From assembly GCF_963921235.1 (NCBI RefSeq), contig NC_086097.1:169076001-169140000 (forward strand): a DNA stretch of 64,000 nucleotides, in the 5' to 3' direction. The notes beneath the pieces were generated by a model that had not been told where the DNA came from, searched no databases, and worked only from the letters and a program-made list of their open reading frames with translations. The stretch is from Mobula hypostoma. Its lineage: Eukaryota. The position numbers and the translations under genes are program-made. This document shows, one piece after another, positions 1,966-55,992 of the stretch; position 1 is the first letter of the stretch; each line of letters starts with the position of its first letter.

Positions 1966-3722
1966 TACGGCTTTGTGCGGAACCAAACGAAATGGGGGAG
2001 ATCTTAAAAAAGGTTTTTTGCGTCTGTATTTACTAAGGAAGCTGGCATGAAATCTATGGAATTGAGGGAATCAAGTAGTGAGACCATGGAAACTGTACAG
2101 ATTGAAAAGGAGGAGGTGTTTGCTGTTTTGAGGAAAATTAAAGTGGATAAATCCCCGGGACCTGACAGGGTGTTCTCTCGGATCTTGAAGGAGACTAGTG
2201 TTGAAATTGCGGGGGCCCTGGCAGAAATATTTAAAATGTCGCTGTCTACAGGTGAAGTGCCAGAGGATTGGAGAGTGGCTCATGTTGTTCCGTTGTTTAA
2301 AAAAGGATCGAAAAGTAATCCGGGAAATTATAGGCCGGTGAGTTTAACATCAGTAGTAGGTAAGTTATTGGAGGGAGTACTAAGAGACAGAATCTACAAG
2401 CATTTGGATAGACAGGGGCTTATTAGGGAGAGTCAATATGGCTTTGTGCGTGGTAGGTCATGTTTGACCAATCTGTTGGAGTTTTTCAAGGAGGTTACCA
2501 GGAAAGTGGATGAAGGGAGGGCAGTGGATATTGTCTACATGGACTTCAGTAAGGCCTTTGACAAGGTCCCGCATGGGAGGTTAGTTAGGAAAATTCAGTC
2601 GCTAGGTATACATGGAGAGGTGGTAAATTGGATTAGACATTGGCTCGATGGAAGAAGCCAGAGAGTGGTGGTAGAGAATTGCTTCTCTGAGTGGAGGCCT
2701 GTGACTAGTGGTGTGCCACAGGGATCAGTGCTGGGTCCATTGTTATTTGTCATCTATATCAATGATCTGGATGATAATGTGGTAAATTGGATCAGCAAGT
2801 TTGCTGATGATCCAAAGATTGGAGGTGTAGTAGACAGTGAGGAAGGTTTTCAGAGCCTGCAGAGGGACTTGGACAAGCTGGAAAAATGGGCTGAAAAATG
2901 GCAGATGGAGTTTAATACTGACAAGAGTGAGGTATTGCACGTTGGAAGGACAAACCAACGTAGAACATACAGGGTTAATGGTAAGGCACTGAGGAGTGCA
3001 GTGGAACAGAGGGACCTGGAAATACAGATACAAAATTCCCTAAAAGTGTCATCACAGGTAGATAGGGTTGTAAAGAGAGCTTTTGGTACATTGGCCTTTA
3101 TTAATCAAAGTATTGAGTATAAGAGCTGGAATGTTATGGTGAGGTTGTATAAGGCATTGGTGAGGCCGAATCTGGAGTATTGTGTTCAGTTTTGGTCACC
3201 AAATTACAGGAAGGATATAAATAAGGTTGAAAGAGTGCAGAGAAGGTTTACAAGGATGTTGCCGGGACTTGAGAAACTCAGTTACAGAGAAAGGTTGAAT
3301 AGGTTAGGACTTTATTCCCTGGAGCGTAGAAGAATGAGGGGAAATTTGATAGAGGTATATAAAATTATGATGGGTATAGATAGAGTGAATGCAAGCAGAC
3401 TTTTTCCACTGAGGCAAGGGGAGAAAAAAACCAGAGGACATGGGTTAAGGGTGAGGGGGGAACAGTTTAAAGGGAACATTAAGGGGGGCTTCTTCACACA
3501 GAGAGTGGTGGGAGTATGGAATGAGCTGCCAGACAGGGTGGTAAATGCGGGTTCTTTTTTAACATTTAAGAATAAATTGGACAGATACATGGATGGGAGG
3601 TGTATGGAGGGATATGGTCCGTGTGCAGGTCAGTGGGACTAGGCAGAAAATGGTTCGGCACAGCCAAGAAGGGCCAAAGGGCCTGTTTCTGTGCTGTAGT
3701 TTCTATGGTTCTATGGTTCTAT
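1966..3722 (+). mobile_element. Young 5'-truncated CR1 LINE nested in the 170-5891 element
   Basis: Host reading LFYG|KDVIEKW is split here; tail (TTCTATGG)n at 3701-3724; GGAA repeated at 1962-1965 and 3723-3726. Confidence 0.92.
2047..3642 (+). CDS. Uninterrupted 531-aa CR1 reverse transcriptase and C-terminal domain (no endonuclease; 5'-truncated)
   Basis: KSPGPD, NYRPVSLTS, QYGF, DFSKAFD, GVPQGSVLGP, FADD. Confidence 0.85.
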   Translation: MKSMELRESSSETMETVQIEKEEVFAVLRKIKVDKSPGPDRVFSRILKETSVEIAGALAEIFKMSLSTGEVPEDWRVAHVVPLFKKGSKSNPGNYRPVSLTSVVGKLLEGVLRDRIYKHLDRQGLIRESQYGFVRGRSCLTNLLEFFKEVTRKVDEGRAVDIVYMDFSKAFDKVPHGRLVRKIQSLGIHGEVVNWIRHWLDGRSQRVVVENCFSEWRPVTSGVPQGSVLGPLLFVIYINDLDDNVVNWISKFADDPKIGGVVDSEEGFQSLQRDLDKLEKWAEKWQMEFNTDKSEVLHVGRTNQRRTYRVNGKALRSAVEQRDLEIQIQNSLKVSSQVDRVVKRAFGTLAFINQSIEYKSWNVMVRLYKALVRPNLEYCVQFWSPNYRKDINKVERVQRRFTRMLPGLEKLSYRERLNRLGLYSLERRRMRGNLIEVYKIMMGIDRVNASRLFPLRQGEKKTRGHGLRVRGEQFKGNIKGGFFTQRVVGVWNELPDRVVNAGSFLTFKNKLDRYMDGRCMEGYGPCAGQWD

Positions 3723-4858
3723 GGAAGGATGTAATAGAGAAATGGAGGTCATTTAAAGATGAAATCTTGAGGGCATAGGTTGAAAGGAAAGGTTAAAAGT
3801 TTGAGAGAGCCATGGTTTTCAAGAGATATTGGAAACTTGGTTCAGAAAAAGAGAGAGATCTACAATAAATATAGGCAGCTTGGAATAAATGAGGTGCTCA
3901 AGGAATATAAAGAATGTAAAAAGAATCTTAAGAAAGAAATTAGAAAAGCTAAAAGAAGATATGAGGCTGCTTTGGCAAATAAGGTGAAAATAAATCCAAA
4001 GGGTTTCTACAGTTATATTAATAGCAAAAGGATAGTGAGGGATAAAATTGGTCCCTTAGAGAATCAGAGTGGATGGCTATGTGCACAGCCAAAAGAGATG
4101 GGGGAGATTTTGAACAATTTCTTTTCTTCGGTATTCACTAAGGAGAAGGATATTGAATTGTGTAAGGTAAGGGAAACAAGTAGGGTAGGGTAGTTATGGA
4201 AACTATGATGATTAAAGAAGAGGAAGTACTGGTGCTTTTAAGGAATATAAAAGTGGATAAGTCTCCGGGTCCTGACAGGATATTCCCTAGGACCCTGAGG
4301 GAAGTTGGTGTGGAAATAGCAGGGGCTCTGACAGAAATATTTCAAATGTCATTAGAAACGGGGATGGTGCCAGAGGATTGGCATATTGCTCATGTTGCTC
4401 CATTGTTTAAAAAGGGTTCTAAGAGTAAACCTAGCAATTATCGGCCTGTGAGTTTGACGTCAGTGGTGGGTAAATCGATGGAAAGTATTCTTGGAGATGG
4501 TATATATAATTATCTGTATAGACAGGGTCTGATTAGGAACAGTCAACATGGATTTGTGCTTGGAAGGTCATGTTTGACAAATCTTATTGAATTTTTTGAA
4601 GAGGTTACTAGGAAAGTTGATGAGGGTAAAACAGTGGATGTTGTCTATATGGACTTCAGTAAGGCCTTTGACAAAGTTCCACACGGAAGGTTAGTTAGGA
4701 AGGTTCAATCGTTAGGTATTGATATTGAAGTAGTAAAATGGATTCAGCAGTGGATGGATGGGAGATGCCAGAGAGTAGTGGTGGATAACTGTATGTCAGA
4801 TTGGAGGCCAGTGACTAGTGGTGTGCCTCAGAGATCTGTAATGGGTCCGATGTTGTTT

Positions 4859-7660: not shown

Positions 7661-8002
7661 GAAAGCATAGACTATTCTCTAACTGGAAAGAAAATTGAAA
7701 AATCTGATGTGCAAAGGGACTTGGAGAGTCCTCATGCAGAATTCGCCAGAAGGTTAATTTGCAGGTTGAATCAGTAGTAAGGAATGGAAATGCAATGTTA
7801 CCATTCGTTTGAGTGGATAAGAATATAAAAGCAGGGATGCAAAGGCTTTATAAGGCACTGGAAAGGCCTCACTTGGGGTATTGTGAGCAGTTTTTAGCCC
7901 CTTAGTTACTATTCATTTGAGTGGATACGAATATAAAAGCAAGCATGTTAAGGCTTTATAAGGTGCTAGAGAGACCTCACTTGGAGTATTGTGAGCAGTT
8001 TT

Positions 8003-28960: not shown

Positions 28961-29903
28961 TTTTTGCCTTCAAAAAACTTTGACTTTAAAAAAAAACTGT
29001 TTTTGATAGGACATTACCTCTGAAAACTACAATAAATATTGTGTTTTGGGTGTACAAGAAATGCACTATTTTAAACAGTTTTCATTATACTACAAGCTTA
29101 AAAGCTAAATAAAGATTTTCTGAAAACATTAATAAAGTTGTCAGGCAGGAACAATATTTAAAATACTATTTGAATAAGCTAACTTGTAGTAACATAAAAT
29201 GCTGACTTCAATTCAGAGCAAAACAAGGTGTTTAATGAAATTAAAGAATGCTAAAGTTTGATTCACACTTCTGTTTTCACGACTAGAATAAACTTTAGTT
29301 TTCTACAAACGACAATTCAATGCCATTTCCACCATTTCACAATCCAAAAACTCAGCTCAAAGCATCATCATAACAATGGAAATAAATAGATCTCAAATTG
29401 AGGGCATATCAACAATGACAAATATACAATAAACCCCAAAACAGTACAATTTCATTTTTGAGCTTGAAATTTTCAGCTTTTACATTTGGTTCAGTTCAGG
29501 ATATTTTCTTCTAGCTTAATATTCACGTTTGGAAAAGTAATTTCTTTTCAGATATGTTAAGTATAATGAAATCAAAACCAATAAAAAAATTCAGACTAGT
29601 TCAGGATTTGTTTGTATGCTTTTTTGAGACAAAAGTCTACAGTTTCCAGCAATCATAAACACCTTTTGCTTCATCTACACTTATATTCTTCTGGTATTTT
29701 TCCACAAGATTCCATTGATTAATGCAGAACAAATCTCAAAAATAATTAGATTGGTCAATCTGAAACTTTGAAAAAATCGGCCACATTCAAAAAATATCAT
29801 GAACGTTAAATGAAATTAACTGTATTCTCTTCCTTATAATCCCCTCAGCCCTTTCAAGAAATCCTTTACGATTTCATTACTATTCATGTTTCATAACAAA
29901 TAA

Positions 29904-30101
29904 CCAGATTGAAAATAGTCTGTTCCCTTGTTGGTTTCACAACCTCATTCTTGTTCTCAAGGTTATCTTTGCCAATTTGATGGGAAAATTAAAAAGTCAC
30001 CTGAGATCACTGTAGTAATCATTATCTCCTCCTATAACACGTCTTGATGTTAATACAGCTACTGGTAGCAGGCTTATATAGTATTTCCATGGGTGACTTC
30101 T
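29904..30101. repeat. Left copy of the ~198-bp direct repeat flanking the Hero-type element
   Basis: ccagattgaaaatagtctgttccct...tgacttct, repeated at 32469-32665. Confidence 0.92.
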
Positions 30102-32468
30102 GTCCAGTACAGTGATCCAGCAAGGAAAACTTCCCTTGGATCACCAGGGTATATTCCATGTCCTGCTCCTCCAACCACCCAGTTTGATACCCACCCACCA
30201 CACACCCCCCATCAAGTTAAGTGAAGTCAGAGAAGTCATCAAAAAGGCAAGGTCAGTGTCAGCACGAGGGCCGAATGGAATTTCTTACAAGCTCTATAAA
30301 AATTGCCCTCATGTACTAAAGACCCTGTGGAATCTAATGAAAACTGCCTGTAAAAACCAGTGCATCCCATCAGAGTAGCAAAGAGCTGTGTTCATCGCCA
30401 GGGCAGAGCTTCAGTTCTATCAACCAGCTTTGCACGGCTGAATGTCAAGGAGAAAATCTTCTTCTCAGTTGTGGCTAAAAGAATGACTAGCTACCTCATG
30501 AGCATTGGATATATTGACACCAGCTGCCAGAAGGTAGGAGTTCCAGGCTTCCAAGGATGTGTGGAGCATGCATCATTGATATGGGACCAGATCCAATGAA
30601 CCACGCGTGATAAAGGTGACGTACATGTCATGTGGTTGAATTTTGCAAATGCCTATGGATCTGTGCCTCATCAACTTTGTGATGGATTTCTTTTACATTC
30701 CCAACTGCATTAGAGACTTAGTTTTTGATTACTTCAGTGACTTCCAGATGGGCTTCTCTTTTCAAGACTTTACAATGGGGAGCCAGCCTCCCGAAGTATG
30801 CATCTCTCTGTCCTGTATGTCGCAGCCTTCGAGATCATGCTTATTGGAGCAAAGAAGTGTTTGGAAGTATAAAGCTATAGTCAGGACAGAGGCTTCCTCC
30901 ACTGAGTAGCTAAAATGGATGATGTCACAAGCATGCTTCAGATGGCTCCATGCACAAGAAAGGTGTTGAAGAGACTGAACAAGCTAGTGACATGGGCAAG
31001 GTTGAAGATCAAGCCCTCCAAGTTGCAAAGCCTATCCCTCCGAAAAGGCATCAGAAGCAACAATATCACCTTTGTTGTAGGGCGCAAGGAAATCCCATTT
31101 TTGGGCAGGCAGTCCATCCGAAGCCTTGGGAGGTAGTACACCGCAGAGTTCTCTGATAGGCAGATGGGAAAAATAGCACAGGAATAGCCCACAGAGAGCC
31201 TGGCCAGAATCAACTACAGCCAACTATCTGGAAAGTATAAGGTGTGGTGCTACCGGTTCACACAGTACCAAAGGGTGATCTGGCCTCTAAAAACGTGTAA
31301 AATTTCCTCATCAACAGCCGGTAGGATGGATGGGATAGTCAACACATACATCTGGAAATGGGTGGGGCTGCCTGGTAGATCTCGGACACTGTCCTCTTCA
31401 GGAAGAATATGTTGCACCTGCCACTGAGATCCATTAGGCTGGAGTACAAGTGGAGAAAACCCGACTGGTTGTTGAGCTGAGTGAGCCTACTGACCTGTTG
31501 GTGAGGAATACCAATACCTCAATCCATGCCAACTGTAAATGGAGAGTTCAAGATGAAGTAGACCAAACCATCAACAGGCTGCACCACGGCAGAGTCCAGG
31601 CTGGACATGCAGGATTTGGCTGGGGGAAGGCAGCATGCTTCTGGTCCAAGGCTTCGAAGAAAGAGAGAAAAGTCATGGTAATAGAGGAGGTGACAAGGAC
31701 AGAGCACGAGTGCTACAGGGTGAAGGCAGTGGGACAGGGCCGCCAGGGAAGATGGACAACATGGGAAAGCACTATCAACAGGACATTTAGATGGTCTGAC
31801 CTGTGGAAGGTCCCACAAGCCAGATTCAGCTTCCTCATCAGGGCAACCTATGCCCTGCCCCCAAAATCTTCACCACTGGTTCAGCAGTGAGGATAGCTGC
31901 TCCCTGTATGATCAACCAATGCCAACCTCCAAGACATCCTGGCAGGATGCAAGACTGTGCTGTCCCAAGGGCGCTACAGATGGCGACACATCAGGCCCTA
32001 AAGAAACTGGCAGAGATCCTAGAGATCTGTAGATGGGATGTGAGAAGCAGCCTTCCTCCAGCGTAACGATAACTCATCCCAATTGTTAAGGCTAGTAAAA
32101 GTGCTGAATGCTCCCGCCCAAGAGCTCCTTCAGGACTCTTCACCACACTCAAGGAGTGGTGATATGGCAGTGATTGGAGTGAGGCTCAGAAGAGTCACCA
32201 GTGAGTTGGCTGAAGAGGCAGAAAAGGGCAGCTTTTGACTACGGCTGAGGAGGAAGGACAGAAATTGGGGAACTGACTAACCCCAATGAAAGCAGCAGGG
32301 GTTGGCAGGGTGACGTCCCTGCCACTGTCCACCACCAGGAGCTAAGGGAGCAAAACATCAGTGAATGGTGGTCCCTGGCCGATGACTGTGCAGCTGACTT
32401 ATGGGCACTGTTAGAGGTACGGCAGGCAGCAATGCCAAGCAGGAAACATCTTCCTGTAAATCTCATTG
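30102..32468 (+). mobile_element. Decayed, 5'-truncated Hero-type (R2-group, restriction-like endonuclease) non-LTR retrotransposon
   Basis: GPNGISYKLYKNCP, GCVEH, ANAYGSV, MDDVT, IKPSK, GKYKVWCY, FSFLIRATY, CCHC remnant + YRWRH, C-terminal LAEEAEKGSF. Confidence 0.82.
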
Positions 32469-32665
32469 CCAGATTGAAAATAGTCTGTTCCCTGGTTGGT
32501 TTCACCATACCTCATACTTGCTCTCAAGGTTACCTTTGCCAATTGGCGGGAAGATTAAAGTCACCTGACATCACTATAGTACTCATTATCTCCTCATATA
32601 ACATGTCTTAATGTTAATGTAGCTACTGTTAGCAGGCCTATACAGTAGCTCCATGATTGACTTCT
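32469..32665. repeat. Right copy of the ~198-bp direct repeat
   Basis: Colinear with 29904-30101 apart from scattered substitutions and small indels. Confidence 0.92.
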
Positions 32666-32954
32666 CTCTCTTGTTATTTATATGAGATTATTTCCTACTA
32701 TTGATCTTACTTGTTATACGGAGCTACCCCACCTTAATCCACGTTTGACATATCCTGTTGAACATAAAGCCCCAAAATATTTACCTCCTAGTTTTGGCAA
32801 ACTAGCAATCACATTTCTGCCATGTGTATCTGATCACTTCTACTTGTGCAATAAATTCATCAAGCTGATGCCAAAGGCAGTATCTGTTCAAACAAGGTGC
32901 CTTTAATTTTGACTTTTTACCACTTTGCTCTTACTCAACTACATTTGCACTGTA

Positions 32955-34058
32955 ATGTCAGTTACAAGGGTGCATACTGGTGTCTCTACTGTTTAATCTG
33001 TTCCTCACATGTGTACTACACTATGCATTCACCGTCATACCATGTGAGATATACATAAGGTACAGGATGGACAGATCACTGTTGACTTGTGTTGCTTGAG
33101 GGCCCGTTGGAAAACAATCGCTAATCTCAATCGAGAAGCCCTATACACTGATAATTGTACATTTATGGCCCACACAGAAGCCGATCTCCAGCTACTTGTC
33201 GATAGGTTTTCAGAAGCCACATGTCCATTTGGCCTCACCATCAGCCTACAAAAGACGGAAGTCCTGTTCTAGCCTGGTCCAATCTTTACTGTCCATGCAT
33301 CATCCATCTGTGTCGAAGGTACACAGCTTAGAATAGTTGAGGAGTTCAAATACCTCGAAAGCGTTATTTTGAGTGATGGCTCCCTAGAGAAAGAAATCAG
33401 TGCTAAGATTTGCAAGGCTGAACCAGCATAACATCTGAAAAGCCACAAAACTCAAGGTTTACAAAGCAGTCATCCTTAGCAGTCTACTATACGGTTGTGA
33501 AACCTGGACCATATACAGAAGGTACCTTAAAATGCTGGAACCCTTCCATATGTGTAGCCTGAGGTCAATCTTGGGCATCCATTGGCAGGACCATGCCACC
33601 ACAGAGCACAAGCATAGAGGCAATGATCCTGCAAGCCCAGTTTCACTGGATAGGGCATGTTAGATGCATGGAGGATTCTAGAATCTTCTGTTATACAGAG
33701 AGCTGTCTCAAAGAAGAAAAGACAGGGAGGCGACCTTGTAAGAGGCCCAAGGACTGTGTGAAAAGCTACCTTGCGCATGTTGGCATTGCACCTAAGCAGC
33801 TTGAGTGGAGTACTCAGGACTGGACTGGATGGTGTGCTCTAGTAAGCCAAGCCTCCAACTACTTCAAGAATAGTCGCCGTGCAGATCTGGTCACTGCTTG
33901 AGAGAGGAGAAAAATGGCCACATCAGTTGCTCCAACTGCAGCCAGCTATTATTATCAACATTTATGCCTTTCCAGAATCGGAATGCACAGCCACCTCAGA
34001 ACACACAACTGATGAGCTGCACAGACAAACGTCATCGTCGAAAATGACGAACAACCAA
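32955..34058 (+). mobile_element. Decayed RTE-clade LINE 3' fragment
   Basis: AHTEADLQLLVDRFSEA..FGLTISLQKTEV; LLYGCETWT; WIGHVRCMED. Confidence 0.82.
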
Positions 34059-36262: not shown

Positions 36263-38788
36263 GAAACCATAGAAACCATAGAAACTACAGCACAGAAACA
36301 GGCCCTTTGGCCCTTCTTGGCTGTGCCGAACCATTTTCTGCCTAGTCCCACTGACCTGCACACGAACCATATCCCTCCATACACCTCCCATCCATGTATC
36401 TGTCCAATTTATTCTTAAATGTTAAAAAAGAACCTGCATTTACCACCTCGTCTGGCAGCTCATTCCATACTCCCACCACTCTCTGTGTGAAGAAGCCTCC
36501 ACTAATGTTCCCTTTAAACTTTTCCCCCCTCACCCTTAACCCATGTCCTCTGGTTTTTTTCTCCCCTTGCCTCAGTGGAAAAAGCCTGCTTGCGTTCACT
36601 CTATCTATACCCATCATAATTTTATATACCTCTATCAAATCTCCCCTCATTCTTCTATGCTCCAGGGAATAAAGTCCTAACCTATTCAACCTTTCTCTGT
36701 AACTGAATTTCTCAAGTCCCGGCAACATCCTTGTAAACCTTCTCTGCACTCTTTCAACCTTATTTATATCCTTCCTGTAATTTGGTGACCAAAACTGAAC
36801 ACAATACTCCAGATTCGGCCTCACCAATGCCTTATACAACCTCATCATAACATTCCAGCTCTTATACTCAATACTTCGATTAATAAAGGCCAATGTACCA
36901 AAAGCTCTCTTTACGACCCTATCTACCTGTGACGACACTTTTAGGGAATTTTGATTCTGTATTCCCAGATCCCTCTGTTCCACTGCACTCCTCAGTGCCT
37001 TACCATTAACCCTGTATGTTCTACGTTGGTTCGTCCTTCCAACGTGCAATACCTCACACTTGTCAGTATTAAACTCCATCTGCCATTTTTCAGCCCATTT
37101 TTCCAGCTGGTCTAAGTCCCTCTGCAGGCTCTGAAAATCTTCCTCACTGTCTACTACACCTCCAATCTTTGTATCATCAGCAAACTTGCTGATCCAATTT
37201 ACCACATTATCATCCAGATCATTGATATAGATGACAAATAACGATGGACCCAGCACTGATCCCTGTGGCACACCACTAGTCACAGGCCTCCACTCAGAGA
37301 AGCAATTTTCTACCACCACTCTCTGGCTTCTTCCATCGAGCCAATGTCCAATCCAATTTACCACCTCTCCATGTATACCTAGCGACTGAATTTTCCTAAC
37401 TAACCTCCCATGCGGGACCTTGTCAAAGGCCTTACTGAAGTCCATGTAGACAATATCCACTGCCTTCCCTTCATCCACTTTCCTGGTAACCTCCTTGAAA
37501 AACTCCAACAGATTGGTCAAATATGACCTACCATGCACAAAGCCATGTTGACTCTCCCTAATAAGCCCCTGTCTATCCAAATGCTTGTAGATTCTGTCTC
37601 TTAGTACTCCCTCCAATAACTTACCTACTACTGACGTTAAACTCACCGGCCTATAATTTCCCGGATTACTTTTCGATCCTTTTTTAAACAACGGAACAAC
37701 ATGAACCACTCTCCAATCCTCCGGCACTTCACCCGTAGACAGCGACATTTTAAATATTTCTACCAGGGCCCCCGCAATTTCAACACTAGTCTCTTTCAAG
37801 GTCCGAGGGAACACCCTGTCAGGTCCCGGGGATTTATCCACTTTAATTTTCCTCAAGACAGCAAGCACCTTCTCCTTTTCAATCTGTAGAGTTGCCATAG
37901 TCTCACTACTTGATTCCCTCAATTCCATAGATTTCATGCCAGCTTCCTTAGTAAATACAGATGCAAAAAAACCTATTTAAGATCTCCCCCATTTCCTTTG
38001 GTTCCGCACAAAGCTGACCACCCTGATCTTCAAGAGGACCAATTTTATCCCTTACAATCCTTTTGCTCTTAATATACTTGTAAAAGCTCTTTGGATTATC
38101 CTTCACTTTGACTGCCAAGGCAACCTCATGTCTTCTTTTAGCCCTCCTGATTTCTTTCTTAAGTATTTTCTTGCACTTCTTATACTCCTCAAGCACCTGA
38201 TTTACCCCGTTTCCTATACATTTCATACAACTCCCTCTTCTTCTTTATCAGAGTTGCAATATCCCTTGAGAACCAAGGTTCCTTATTCCTATTCAATTTG
38301 CCTTTAATCCTGACAGGAACATACAAACTCTGCACTCTCAAAATTTCCCCTTTGAAGGCTTCCCACCTACCAATGACATCTTTGCCAGAGAACAACCTGT
38401 CCCAATCCACGCTTTTTAGATCCTTTCTCATTTCTTCAAATTTGGCCTTCTTCCAGTTCAGAATCTCAACCCTAGGACCAGATCTATCCTTGTCCATGAT
38501 CAAATTGAAACTAATGGCGTTATGATCACTGGAACCAAAGTGCTCCCCTACACAGACTTCCGTCACTTGCCCTAATTGGTTTCCTAACAGGAGATCCAAT
38601 ATTGCATCCCCTCTAGTTGGTCCCTCTATATACTGATTTAGAAAACTTTCCTGAACACATTTTACAAACTCTAAACCATCTAGACCCCTAACAGTATGGG
38701 AGTCCCAATCAATGTATGGAAAATTAAAATCCCCTACCACCACAACTTTATGTTTCCTGCAGTTGTCTGCTATCTCTCTGCAGATTTG
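36263..38788 (-). mobile_element. Young 5'-truncated CR1 LINE, same subfamily as 1966-3722
   Basis: Partial endonuclease (GDFNFP, SDH), tether and RT; (TTTCTATGG)n tail; possible TSD TGGAA at 36257-36261 and 38789-38793. Confidence 0.93.
36342..37937 (-). CDS. Uninterrupted 531-aa CR1 RT and C-terminal domain (frameshifted from the upstream endonuclease)
   Basis: FADDTKIG; about 29 aa differences from ORF 2047-3642 by manual count. Confidence 0.85.
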   Translation of the reverse strand: MKSMELRESSSETMATLQIEKEKVLAVLRKIKVDKSPGPDRVFPRTLKETSVEIAGALVEIFKMSLSTGEVPEDWRVVHVVPLFKKGSKSNPGNYRPVSLTSVVGKLLEGVLRDRIYKHLDRQGLIRESQHGFVHGRSYLTNLLEFFKEVTRKVDEGKAVDIVYMDFSKAFDKVPHGRLVRKIQSLGIHGEVVNWIGHWLDGRSQRVVVENCFSEWRPVTSGVPQGSVLGPSLFVIYINDLDDNVVNWISKFADDTKIGGVVDSEEDFQSLQRDLDQLEKWAEKWQMEFNTDKCEVLHVGRTNQRRTYRVNGKALRSAVEQRDLGIQNQNSLKVSSQVDRVVKRAFGTLAFINRSIEYKSWNVMMRLYKALVRPNLEYCVQFWSPNYRKDINKVERVQRRFTRMLPGLEKFSYRERLNRLGLYSLEHRRMRGDLIEVYKIMMGIDRVNASRLFPLRQGEKKTRGHGLRVRGEKFKGNISGGFFTQRVVGVWNELPDEVVNAGSFLTFKNKLDRYMDGRCMEGYGSCAGQWD

Positions 38789-40318: not shown

Positions 40319-40850
40319 GAACTTTTCTTTGCTTAACCAGGGATCAAAATAGGTCAGCAGTCTTCCAATTTTAGAATTTTTGGCATTATTTTTTAAATCC
40401 CTACATGGTCAGATACTTCGTTCTCTAATTTCCTCCTGCCCTAAACACTCATATATTTGTGCTACGTCAATCCTGTACTATAAATTTAATTCCTAACCTG
40501 TCCAACTCTGTTACTGTTGCTATGAAGCAACCTTGTCACATCAAAAGCACTATGTCACTATTGGGAAACATCATTTCAAGTTCCAAATTTTTTTGTTAAC
40601 AAATTATTTCCCTGGAATACAACTTCATTGTAAATCCAGGGATCCTGATAGCTAACACCCATCCCATTCCATCTCCACATGACTTCCAATAAGGTTTTCT
40701 TTTCTACGAGATCACAGCTTCACAGTCTAAAACACACACCTTTATTGCATACACATACATCTTTAAAACATACAACATTATAGTCTAAGCAACACACATC
40801 AAAGTTGCTGGTGAACGCAGCAGGCCAGGCAGCATCTGTAGGAAGAGGTG

Positions 40851-40888
40851 TAGTCGACGTTTCAGGCCGAGACCCTTCGTCAGGACTA
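40851..40888 (-). ncRNA. Minimal type I hammerhead ribozyme, core intact
   Basis: uaguc-CUGACGA-agg.gucucgg.ccu-GAAAC-GUC-gacua: stem I, stem II, palindromic ACGU stem III. Confidence 0.8.
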
Positions 40889-41152
40889 ACTGAAGGAAGA
40901 GTGAGTAAGGGATTTGAAAGTTGGAGGGGGAGGGGGAGATCCAAAATGATAGGAGAAGACAGGAGGGGGAGGGATAGAGCCAAGAGCTGGACAGGTGATA
41001 GGCAAAAGGGGATACGAGAGGATCATGGGACAGGAGGTCCGGGAAGAAAGACAAGGGGGGGGGAACCCAGAGGATGGGCAAGAGGTATATTCAGAGGGAC
41101 AGAGGGAGAAAAAGGAGAGTGAGAGAAAGAATGTGTGCATAAAAATAAGTAT

Positions 41153-41942
41153 CAGGATGAGGCTTTTCATTCTAGGACGAGGGAGATGTCTCCCTTTTTT
41201 AAAGAAAGGGGCTTCCCTTCCTCCACTATCAACTCTGCTCTTAAACGCATCTCCCCCATTTCACGTACATCTGTTCTCACTCCATCCTCCCGCCACCCCA
41301 CTAGGAATAGGGTTCCCCTGGTCCTCACCTACCACCCCACCAGCCTCCAGGTCCAACATATTATTCTCCGTAACTTCCGCCACCTCCAACGTGATCCCAC
41401 CACTAAGCACATCTTTCCCTCCCCCCCTCTCTCTGCATTCCGCAGGGATCGCTCCCTACGCAACTCCCTTGTCCATTCGTCCCCCCCATCCCTCCCCACT
41501 GATCTCCCTCCTGGCACTTATCCGTGTAAGCGGAACAAGTGCTACACATGCCCTTACACTTCCTCCCTTACCACCATTCAGGGCCCCAAACAGTCCTTCC
41601 AGGTGAGGCAACACTTCACCTGTGAGTCGACTGGGGTGATATACTGCGTCTGGTACACCCGATGTGGCCTTTTATATATTGGCGAGACCCGACGCAGACT
41701 GGGAGACCGCTTTGCTGAACATCTACGCTCTGTCCGCCAGAGAAAGCAGGATCTCCCAGTGGCCACACATTTTAATTCCACATCCTAATTCCACATCCCA
41801 TTCCCATTCTGACATGTCTATCCACGGCCTCCTCTACTGTAAAGATGAAGCCACACTCAGGTTGGAGGAACAACACCTTATATTCCGTCTGGGTAGCCTC
41901 CAACCTGATGGCATGAACATCGACTTCTCTAACTTCCGCTAA
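41153..41942 (+). pseudogene. Penelope ORF C-terminus with GIY-YIG endonuclease, frameshifted by a 13-bp tandem duplication
   Basis: CKRNKCYTC; VIYC...LYIGETRRRLGDRFAEH; (taattccacatcc)x2 at 41773-41798; RLEEQHLIFRLGSLQPDGMN. Confidence 0.9.
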
Positions 41943-42235
41943 GGCCCCACCTCCCCCTCGTACCCCATCTGTTACTTATTTTTATGCGCACATTCTTTCT
42001 CTCACTCTCCTTTTTCTCCCTCTGTCCCTCTGAATATACCTCTTGCTCATCCTCTGGGTTCCCCCCCCCTTGTCTTTCTTCCCGGACCTCCTGTCCCATG
42101 ATCCTCTCGTATCCCCTTTTGCCTATCACCTGTCCAGCTCTTGGCTCTATCCCTCCCCCTCCTGTCTTCTCCTATCATTTTGGATCTCCCCCTCCCCCCC
42201 AACTTTCAAATCCCTTACTCACTCTTCCTTCAGTT

Positions 42236-42271
42236 AGTCCTGACAAAGGGTCTCGGCCTGAAACGTCGACT
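42236..42271 (+). ncRNA. Minimal hammerhead motif with a core mutation (CUGACAA)
   Basis: agtcctgacaaagggtctcggcctgaaacgtcgact. Confidence 0.65.
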
Positions 42272-43104
42272 GCACCTCTTCCTACAGATGCTGCCTGGCC
42301 TGCTGCGTTCACCTGCAACTTTGATGTGTGTTGCTTGAATTTCCAGCAACTGCAGAATTCCTGTTGTCAACATTATAATCTTACACCTTAGCAACTTTGC
42401 TGTTCATTAGGAAAAGACAAGTATCCTACTCACATCACGAGGACATACACTATTGTCCAGCTTTCAGGTATGCAGGGCAAAGTTGGTCACTGCATTTAAA
42501 AGAAGATGGAGCCACTTAAAGGCACCTCACATACCACCAAATCCAATCATTCCCAAATTGTGCTCCTTCCTATGATATTGTCTCCTCTTTTTCTATACTA
42601 TTTTCTCTTGCTTTTTTTTTCCTTTTCCACAGCTCAAAATAAAATCAACTCGTACTTCTAACTAAATGCTCCAAGTCTCCATCTCCTTTGGAATATAACA
42701 TTCAATGTAAAGTAATTAGTGAGCATTGCAAAAAAAACACTACAAATATATATTTTTTAAAATCACATTAACAGCAGCAAAATAAATTTTAAGATCTACA
42801 AAATAATTTATAATACTGTATCAATATTTGGATACCACATGCATCTCAACCACGCCACAATTACTTTCATCTTTAGTCAAATCTTCTATATTCACCTGAA
42901 ATATTAGTCACCTCTTCCTGACATCTATAATTTATAAACATACAGAATTATAGTGATTGCTTCCAATTTAAAATCTTAATCTAAATTATAACCAGGTTAA
43001 GTAATCTTAGAATACAGAACATATTAATTTATTTCCAATATTAAAACTACTGTGAAATTAACTAGTTTGCCTTACCAATTGCACTTAGTCAGCTACAATC
43101 ACTC

Positions 43105-45082: not shown

Positions 45083-45321
45083 TGGAGCTCTGACCAGTGA
45101 CCAATCGTGAGATCAGAGGCTTGAGAAGAGGGAATTTCACTCAGGTCCCCTGACCGAGTATGAAAGGGCGACAACTTGTGGAAGTTTGTTTGGAGCTCTG
45201 ACCAGTGACCAACCAGGAGATCAGAAGCTTGAGAGGAGGGAATTTCACTTTGGTCCGCTGATGAAGTATAAAAGGGTAGCAACTTGCAGCAGTTTGTTTG
45301 GAGCTTTGACCAGTAACCAAA
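45083..45321 (+). repeat. 108-bp tandem repeat (2.2 units) at the 5' end of a CR1
   Basis: tggagctytgaccagt starts at 45083, 45191 and 45299. Confidence 0.9.
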
Positions 45322-53697: not shown

Positions 53698-55085
53698 TGA
53701 ACTGATGAAATTTACTTTTTCATTTTTCCTCACAAGTTAGATAAATTCCTATTTTACCACAACATACTTCACATGGCCACTCTTGCTCAATGACTTAAGT
53801 CTATTTGCCTTTGCAAATTCCACAAACCTTGCATATCCACTTTACTCACCCACCAAATTTGGAGGAATATGGGCCAAATGCAGACAATTGGAAATAGTTC
53901 AGGAAGATATAAAATCATGAAGGGTACAGACAGGAAAGACTGTGGGAAACTTTTCCCTTCTCAGAAGCAAATAAAATTAGAGGACACAGATTGGGGTAAG
54001 GGGTGACAGATTTTTCACCCAGAAAGAGGTAATGCACTGCTGGAGTGGTGGAAGCAGAATCACTGCTAGATGTCTAGATGGGGTCTTAAATTGCCTAAGG
54101 ATACAATGCCAGAAGAAGGAATTAACCCAGACAGATAGCCTATAATTGGCATAGATGCGATGGGCCAAATGCTCTGTTTCCGTGTCATATGACTGACTTC
54201 TCATAACTTTAAAGCCACTTCTCAGCAGATTAGTAACAGCTGTTTCTACTCCCAGATCAACATCTCCAGCACTGTTACACTAGCAACACACACAAAATGT
54301 TGAAGGAACTCAGCAGGTCATGCAGCATCTATGGCAGGATTTTTCATACTAACTCTGAGGGTCTCTTTGTGTTTACAATGCTACCAGCACTGAAACGTGT
54401 GAACTCGTCAATGATATGGAGATACCACACTCCTTGCTCCAGTTCATGTAGGTCTAAGGCTACTGTTTCATTGTATTCAGATGCTAGTGGCAGACCAATC
54501 GGAAGCTTGGGTTTAGGCTTTCCATATATTTGGCATGTCTCACAGCTGTCAACTATCTTCTCTAGAATGGAAAAATGGTCTGCATCTTTGTTTTCTGAAC
54601 TTCTGAGCAATTTCTGAAGTCTATCAGTCAAAGTGTGTCCAAACTGCTTCTGAAGCTTGAGCAACACTTTGCATTTCTCATCTGAAGTTTTGTTCTCTGT
54701 GACAATTAGTGCTTCATTCTCACATTGATTCTCAGTAATGCCTTTATCTAAAATGTTCACAGTAATGTCCAGAGCTGCTGAGCTCAAGAGACATCGGCTG
54801 TTGAAACATCATTGCTTGGTTATTCTCCGTATCCAGGTCTGTCCCTGCTTTCTTTGGGGAAGTTTTACTCAAGAGCTATGGGATGTTCACTGGTACCACC
54901 TCCATTTCAATGTAAGATTTCGTCTGCCCTATTTTTGTGGGAATTTTCACTCTTTTGGTAGAATGTACAATCTTTCTAGCTCCAAATTTGAATGTTTTGT
55001 AACTGGAAATATCTGCGTTCACCACTCTATGCACTTCATTCTAGTTTAGTTCACCTCCACAGTCTTCAAGTTATTTTTCTCCACA

Positions 55086-55116
<31 letters not shown>

Positions 55117-55133
55117 CACACGCGCGCGCGCGC
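55086..55133. repeat. (TG)n-(CG)n alternating purine-pyrimidine microsatellite
   Basis: gtgtgt...gcgcgcacacgcgcgcgcgcg. Confidence 0.95.
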
Positions 55134-55972
55134 TGTATCCTAGGAATTCCATCATCAAAATCTCTGCATTAGTAAGTGGTTCCTTTGCAAACAATGCTAT
55201 ATGGCACTCTTCTACATCTTCATTTTTGTTCTTCTCTTCAGTTAGTTTAAATTATTCGGTTCTGTGCAGATAGCTTTTTGCAGTGTTAAGTACTTTGACA
55301 AACCACACATTTCAATCTCCTGCCATACTTGTTTAGTGGATTTATACCAGGTAATTATAACCTTGTCTGGTCACTCTGAGACCTATGCTTGCTACTCTCT
55401 TGTTTCTGCACAGTGAAGTCTGCAGTTTCCTGACTCAAACTAATTCCAACTATTGTCTTAGTGGCTTTTTCTCCAAAACTCCTCTTCAGTGTCAATTTTA
55501 TAGATGCAAATGTACGTTCTGTACATACAGTTAACGCTAGCTGTCTGTCCTTTATGTCTAGACATGCAGTATCCAACAATTTAAGGCTCATACTGCGTCA
55601 TGAAGTTCCATTTTGTACTTATGCATGGAACTGTACTTTTGTTCAAAATCAGTAATACAATCAGTCACATTTGTAGAACTGTCTCTAGAAATTTTGTCGA
55701 AGTCTGGAGATGGCTCATAAATCTGATCCTTTTCTTCCTTCAGAAAAACGGAGTCAAGTGCATTTATTAATGTATTCATACCATCATCTTCCTTCAAGTC
55801 TTCCACTGAAGTTCCCATCCGAGTCTCTCTTGCTCTTCCCAAAAACAACAATACAACTGCAAAGGTCTGCTTTTTCTTCTTGAGTTCCATAACCCAAGTT
55901 CCTATTCCAATTTCATTTTTCCAGCTTTCATAAGGCGTGCTCTTGTCGAATGCTGGTGGGATCCTATAATTG

Positions 55973-55992
55973 GAAACCATCCTCTGCTACCA
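55973..55992 (-). promoter_or_regulatory. Primer-binding site for initiator tRNA-Met
   Basis: Plus strand gaaaccatcctctgctacca equals the 3' 20 nt (with CCA) of vertebrate tRNA-iMet. Confidence 0.9.

Follow-up and report, generated by a model that had tools for sequence, protein, structure and literature searches.

The window, a 64-kb stretch of repeat-rich vertebrate DNA (~40% GC), contains a dead retrotransposon of the Hero type lying between two copies of a direct repeat about 200 bp long. This arrangement raises two linked questions: whether the repeat is host DNA that was duplicated when the element was inserted, and whether a duplication of such length is a habit of the family or the outcome of a sporadic event. 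Local alignment of the left (29904 to 30104, plus strand) and right (32469 to 32668, plus strand) copies spans 203 columns, 175 of which are identical and 5 of which contain gaps; the pair is recovered by self-BLAST with an E value of 2e-59, and its substitutions comprise 14 transitions and 9 transversions (K2P distance, 0.127). The outer end of the repeat lies at 30101/32665, giving a length of 198 bp, or, if one mismatch is tolerated, at 30104/32668, giving 201 bp. At the right junction, the repeat starts at 32469, the base after the 3' end of the family at 32468, and at the left junction, the match of the element to its relatives begins at 30105, with a gap of 0 to 3 bases to the repeat. 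The first-pass annotation had described direct repeats adjoining both ends of the element, and this is borne out by the alignment and by junctions that both fall within 0 to 3 bases. The locus thus has the order target copy, element from 30105 to the exact 3' end of its family, and target copy.

A screen of the window for direct-repeat pairs (≥40 bp, 78% identity, <10 kb apart) yielded five pairs: two in tandem, two ~8 to 9 kb apart, and one around the Hero element, which is the only short element in the window bracketed by direct repeats. The tandem duplications (7797 to 8002 and 45083 to 45320) are unrelated, and both have a period of 108 bp with 84 to 86% identity. The window also houses several other mobile elements. 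Two young CR1 copies (1970 to 3718 and 36265 to 38014), 97% identical, inverted, and 33 kb apart, each retain an open RT frame of 544 aa; a pair of 369-bp inverted repeats (40787 to 41155 and 41969 to 42336; 98% identical) flanks a 221-aa frame (41123 to 41788) that we take to resemble a Penelope GIY-YIG endonuclease; a degenerate LINE fragment, presumably RTE-like by its motifs, lies at 33048 to 33900, 380 bp to the right of the right repeat; and minus-strand frames at 54344 to 55986 presumably represent remnants of a Gypsy gag and integrase.

The element itself (30105 to 32468, plus strand), as delimited by tblastn, RT identity, and loose contig ends, is best described as a Hero-clade non-LTR retrotransposon of the restriction-like endonuclease (RLE) type that is dead, 5' truncated, and devoid of a poly(A) tail. 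Its broken ORF (30105 to 32280, plus strand) comprises the RT, a linker with a CCHC zinc-knuckle remnant near 31900 to 31950, and a C-terminal tail, and contains 6 stops and 12 frameshifts in a profile alignment; it is followed by a 3' UTR (32281 to 32468, plus strand) that is conserved in teleost relatives and stops at the family terminus (32467 to 32468). A tblastn search with P0002, a relative of 1136 aa, aligned its residue 302 at 30105 and its residue 1135 at 32277 (E value, 4e-151), with a gap of ~127 residues at 32160, where the endonuclease core is missing. Since the alignment begins only at residue 302 and lacks this core, the copy is both 5' truncated and dead. The internal deletion, whose junction (32159 to 32161, plus strand) is marked by the tblastn gap and by loose contig ends, removed most of the RLE, corresponding to approximately residues 970 to 1096 of relatives. 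Intact relatives (~50% identity) encode a single ORF with an RT, a CCHC zinc knuckle, and a PD-(D/E)xK RLE, whereas the window copy has kept the knuckle remnant and lost the RLE core. No second Hero copy was found in the 64-kb window.

A translation carried through the RT region, with stops written as X, recovered 86 relatives from 904 candidates. Identity reaches ~51% for the best of these, and those that carry names are proteins of teleosts and amphioxus; the best relatives of solved structure are R2 proteins (E value, 7e-28). Judged by eye against the supplementary alignments of PMC5678591 and PMC7650587, the element shares with HERO-1_BF 31 of the 45 residues surrounding its RT catalytic motif plus 18 of 23 in another RT block; with HEROTn, it shares 20 of 45. 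These by-eye residue counts assign the element to the HERO clade, with HERO-1_BF of amphioxus as the nearest named member. The earlier designation of the element as Hero type therefore holds, its RT being closest by eye to named HERO elements and 51% identical to relatives over the RT region.

The segment at 32150 to 32468, comprising the ORF end and the 3' UTR, is ~74% identical to the tails of four teleost-type loci (L002, L003, L005, and L022), as against ~68% in the RT region, and a five-sequence alignment of the tails has a mean column identity of 72%. The stronger conservation of the tail than of the RT region suggests a conserved RNA structure in this segment, which also holds hammerhead-like letters. 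A 21-base tail motif matched eight bacterial loci, with a Hero ORF in none of the eight.

The first-pass annotation had read the repeat as an old antisense CR1 endonuclease sequence that continues beyond the right copy. A frameshift-aware profile built on 14 CR1 endonuclease sequences gives a score of 43.8 for the minus strand of the right copy, compared with 21.8 ± 2.7 (maximum, 30.4) for 60 shuffles and with values of ≤28.0 for 30 background stretches. The best-scoring part lies at 32536 to 32678 on the minus strand and extends 10 nt past the right repeat; the next motif of the relic, PTR...L-like, lies at 29899 to 29943, also on the minus strand, and extends 5 nt beyond the start of the left repeat. 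Taken by itself, this left-copy motif scores 25.3, which is within the background, and counts only by its order and position. Other searches lend the relic weak support: a single-query frameshift alignment scores 42 against a shuffle maximum of 39 (n = 40), nhmmer gives an E value of 0.04, single-query tblastn provides weak or no support, and Pfam has no match to the repeat in any of the six frames. From the profile scores, we consider the old CR1-endonuclease relic to be real and to extend across the junction on the right and probably across that on the left, a continuity that is carried by few codons. The antisense CR1 assignment thus stands, as does the continuation past the right copy, though the latter amounts to only ~3 codons. 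The CR1 endonuclease of the window has its best named matches in rays (Narcine, Mobula, and Hypanus), which points to a ray as the probable host.

We then compared the locus (29304 to 33023) with contigs of public sequencing runs aligned at 80% likeness. Four of the 20 runs listed, representing four organisms, were compared (X1, X5, X9, and X14); X9, a run with a share of 0.07, was counted only where aligned, and X1 possibly derives from the sample that the window itself came from. Bins within the element have depths of 98 to 2764 in X1, while the left repeat stands at 22.3 against 15.3 to 20.6 in the left flank and the right repeat at 14.4 against 12.7 to 13.7 in the right flank. The repeats are at flank-level depth in all four runs, and although depth is not equivalent to copy number, the contrast between element and repeats is plain. 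Among the entries listed, loose contig ends lie behind 32468 in 47 (X1), 45 (X5), 2 (X14), and 6 (X9) contigs and behind 32467 in 25 (X1), 17 (X5), and 2 (X14) contigs; the 3' flanks of these other copies in X1 and X5 agree at only 0.37 to 0.41 (17 to 47 contigs per entry listed). Such loose ends with disagreeing flanks indicate that the family terminates at this point, lacks poly(A), and occupies unrelated insertion sites. Furthermore, since other copies leave the alignment at 32467 to 32468 and the repeats remain at flank depth, the repeat is host DNA and neither an LTR nor a part of the element. This confirms the original view of the repeat as target DNA and disposes of the concern that the same 198 bp might flank other copies, which instead run into unrelated sequence. 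A further set of loose ends in X1 touches the internal deletion: among the entries listed, 25 and 12 contigs have loose letters before 32159 and 32160 that resemble, by eye, the missing C-terminal part, and other copies in this organism thus appear to keep the RLE part that was lost here.

The age of the repeat pair bears on when the duplication was made. The two copies differ at 23 of 198 ungapped sites, i.e., 11.6% (confidence interval [CI], 7.5 to 16.9) or 5.8% per copy. An independent age for the element, derived from 6 stops in 718 aligned codons, is ~6.5% (CI, 2.4 to 14), on the assumption that 4.3% of random changes yield a stop and with some of the stops near the deletion being misaligned. 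Hence, the comparison of repeat-pair with element divergence that had been proposed for this locus comes out in favor of a common age, within wide intervals, and the duplication was probably made at insertion. Relative to the window copy, the five longest other-copy pieces listed for X1 diverge by 14 to 19%, somewhat above the repeat pair. The filled site is present in all four organisms, and the insertion is therefore older than their splits; organism C has 43 differences in 841 bases of the left side and 196 in 2688 across the element and the right repeat. No clean case of an empty site was seen among the joints listed (15 of 220). One joint, from 29943 to 32524, was considered as an empty site and rejected: it occurs in one contig each of X1 and X5, has a shorter side of 21 letters, and was read as a paralogous CR1 piece. 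We infer a single ancestral copy of the target, and we hold with high confidence that the 198- to 201-bp duplication arose at insertion.

The mechanism toward which we lean, as somewhat better favored than its competitors taken together, is a sporadic distant break of the second strand during target-primed reverse transcription (TPRT) of a truncated copy into the CR1 relic, rather than a rule of the family. Under the TPRT model (PMC2666801), Hero would have inserted into the old CR1 relic by nicking the bottom strand at 29903|29904, which would have primed cDNA synthesis. Synthesis would then have halted early, producing the 5' truncation, and the top-strand 3' end needed for completion would have been available ~200 bp downstream instead of within a few bases, be it from a distant nick, from a gap already present, or from an end left by replication. 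The 198 to 201 bp between the two breaks would then have been duplicated through displacement and fill-in. Minority outcomes of this kind are on record for other LINEs: L1 target site duplications (TSDs) exceed 100 bp in at most 10% of HeLa events and in the majority of those in NER-deficient cells (PMC5223499), 1 of 25 ZfL2-2 insertions has a TSD of 1228 bp (PMC2666801), and extreme changes of the target accompany 5'-truncated L1 copies (PMC2912911).

The best-surviving alternative, which takes up the suggestion of the first-pass annotation that the family may nick the second strand ~200 bp away and which we regard as unlikely, is that the window Hero family routinely duplicates 100 to 200 bp or more, by a template jump followed by a second cut about one nucleosome or Okazaki fragment downstream. 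That the stagger would in such a family be set by chromatin or lagging-strand geometry and not by sequence, making it a non-site-specific counterpart of R9, seems to us similarly doubtful. A length of ~200 bp approximates that of a nucleosome repeat or an Okazaki fragment; this match, however, rests on one number, and among the matches listed, no paper addresses a link to nucleosomes in its title or the start of its abstract. That the window's single Hero copy should also be its one short element flanked in this manner is more to be expected if the family favors long duplications, but this is a sample of one. There are precedents among RLE elements: R9 of bdelloid rotifers has a 126-bp stagger and TSD (Gladyshev and Arkhipova 2009, as cited by PMC12203849 and PMC6895275), and in R2Bm, the template jump creates a four-way junction on which the second cut then takes place, a model that lets the jump set the stagger and that its authors extend to TSDs via melting of the DNA between the cuts, with examples of 9 and 13 bp (PMC6895275).

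Relatives at other loci were searched for the same habit. Of 34 loci encoding relatives (1 + 30 + 3), 32 were self-aligned (L001 to L031 and L042), and two (L040 and L041) were excluded, as their matches reach the contig ends. Both junctions are present in 2 of the 32 self-aligned loci, clearly in L022 and weakly in L002, both of them teleost type. The 5'-truncated L022, with a left flank of 383 bp and a right flank of 2.7 kb, has no long duplication, its best junction match being 7 of 8 bp; L002, with a left flank of only 52 bp in a high-coverage assembly that is possibly collapsed, has no convincing duplication. The lack of a long duplication in these two loci speaks against a family trait. 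Nevertheless, the teleost relatives are only ~68% identical in DNA to the window element and represent a different family, so they are evidence against a clade-wide habit and not against a habit of the window family. Repeats in L003 (37 bp), L005 (154 bp), L013, and L017 were rejected as TSDs, being element sequence, minisatellite, or contig-end overlap. Two of these loci display a distinct organization: L003 (10 to 46 and 3823 to 3859) and L005 (1440 to 1470) contain head-to-tail junctions, in which the 3' terminus directly precedes the next 5' end, and these belong to two different teleost-type families. A permuted element in L005, moreover, is bounded on each side by a 154-bp segment of internal element sequence (555 to 708 and 4351 to 4504; 98% identical), reflecting either a tandem unit or an assembly loop. 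No Hero relatives were found in viral contigs or in plasmids. L001 and L042 are eukaryotic Hero-like elements in contigs filed as bacterial genomes; L042, which is too decayed to read, is rich in AT microsatellites and therefore probably derives from host contamination.

Somewhat less credible than a family trait is repair synthesis with no second cut, in which the aborted cDNA either paired by its end with the top strand 200 bp downstream or had that end resolved at a replication fork, after which host polymerase copied back over the target. The 5' truncation of the copy is in keeping with such a course, replication or repair may expose DNA ends, which have been considered possible primers of long TSDs (PMC5223499), and the three ambiguous bases at 30102 to 30104 are possibly microhomology or untemplated. 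However, the sequence of relatives upstream of the truncation point shows no clear microhomology to the target end, and the structure of the product would be identical to that left by the distant break.

We consider it very improbable that a 200-bp tandem duplication preexisted and that the element landed at its junction. The window's two tandem duplications with a 108-bp period, similar in divergence, show that such structures occur locally, and an empty site was not seen among the joints listed; but a random hit within 3 bp of one of two such junctions in 64 kb has a probability of ~2e-4, and the ages of repeat and element agree. An element-borne origin of the repeat, as an LTR-like structure, the pseudo-LTR of a tandem unit, or a transduced flank, is largely refuted and merits next to no credence: in the teleost relatives L003 and L005, element sequence does occupy the two ends of head-to-tail units, but here both repeats are at flank-level depth, 72 X1 contigs exit at 32467 to 32468 into unrelated sequence, the repeat derives from CR1 and not from Hero, and a 3' transduction would not yield the copy at the 5' end.

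How non-LTR retrotransposons select the site at which the second strand is broken is still an open question (PMC6895275), and the sporadic distant break that we favor would make the locus a germ-line case, well dated, of an outcome known from a minority of insertions, with a length ~10 times the usual. Should the family instead prove to make such duplications routinely, every insertion would double roughly one nucleosome length of host DNA, an addition that recombination between its two copies might afterwards remove, and long staggers might recur among RLE elements and be missed by TSD searches over short windows. The family's hundreds of copies at unrelated sites could then show whether sequence, or rather chromatin or replication, sets the stagger, a discrimination that is impossible with the site-specific R9, and surveys limited to short TSDs (5 to 30 bp; PMC2912911) would misread such families as devoid of TSDs.

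Among known systems, the HERO clade itself is the closest. Intact relatives of the window element have the single ORF with an RT, zinc knuckle, and RLE of this clade, and just as most HERO families have unrelated flanks and are not target specific (PMC4640811), copies of the window family also lie in unrelated flanks; the window copy differs in the 200-bp duplication around it and in being dead, with the RLE lost. The literature passages searched, which include PMC9004415, PMC12203849, PMC4838377, PMC13580325, and PMC4640811 but neither Repbase reports nor the papers that first described HERO, contain no statement on the length of HERO TSDs. With respect to R9, the likeness lies in the RLE type and in a duplication far above the usual 10 to 20 bp. 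R9, however, is R2 derived and rDNA specific, with a long stagger described for the family, whereas the window family is not site specific, its duplication is ~200 bp, and one copy is known; the flanks of its other copies are unrelated to one another, and the window has no Rfam match that would point to an rDNA target. L1 and ZfL2-2 resemble the present case as LINE copies flanked by a duplication of >100 bp that has been ascribed to a distant second nick (PMC5223499 and PMC2666801), but theirs are APE-type LINEs in cultured cells, while the window harbors an RLE element that is fixed in the germ line and common to four organisms. Finally, among the relatives, the head-to-tail junctions of L003 and L005 resemble an arrangement in pufferfish. 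There, Zebulon/HEROTn reportedly forms partial tandem arrays, in which the repeated ends are element sequence, whereas at the window locus they are host sequence.
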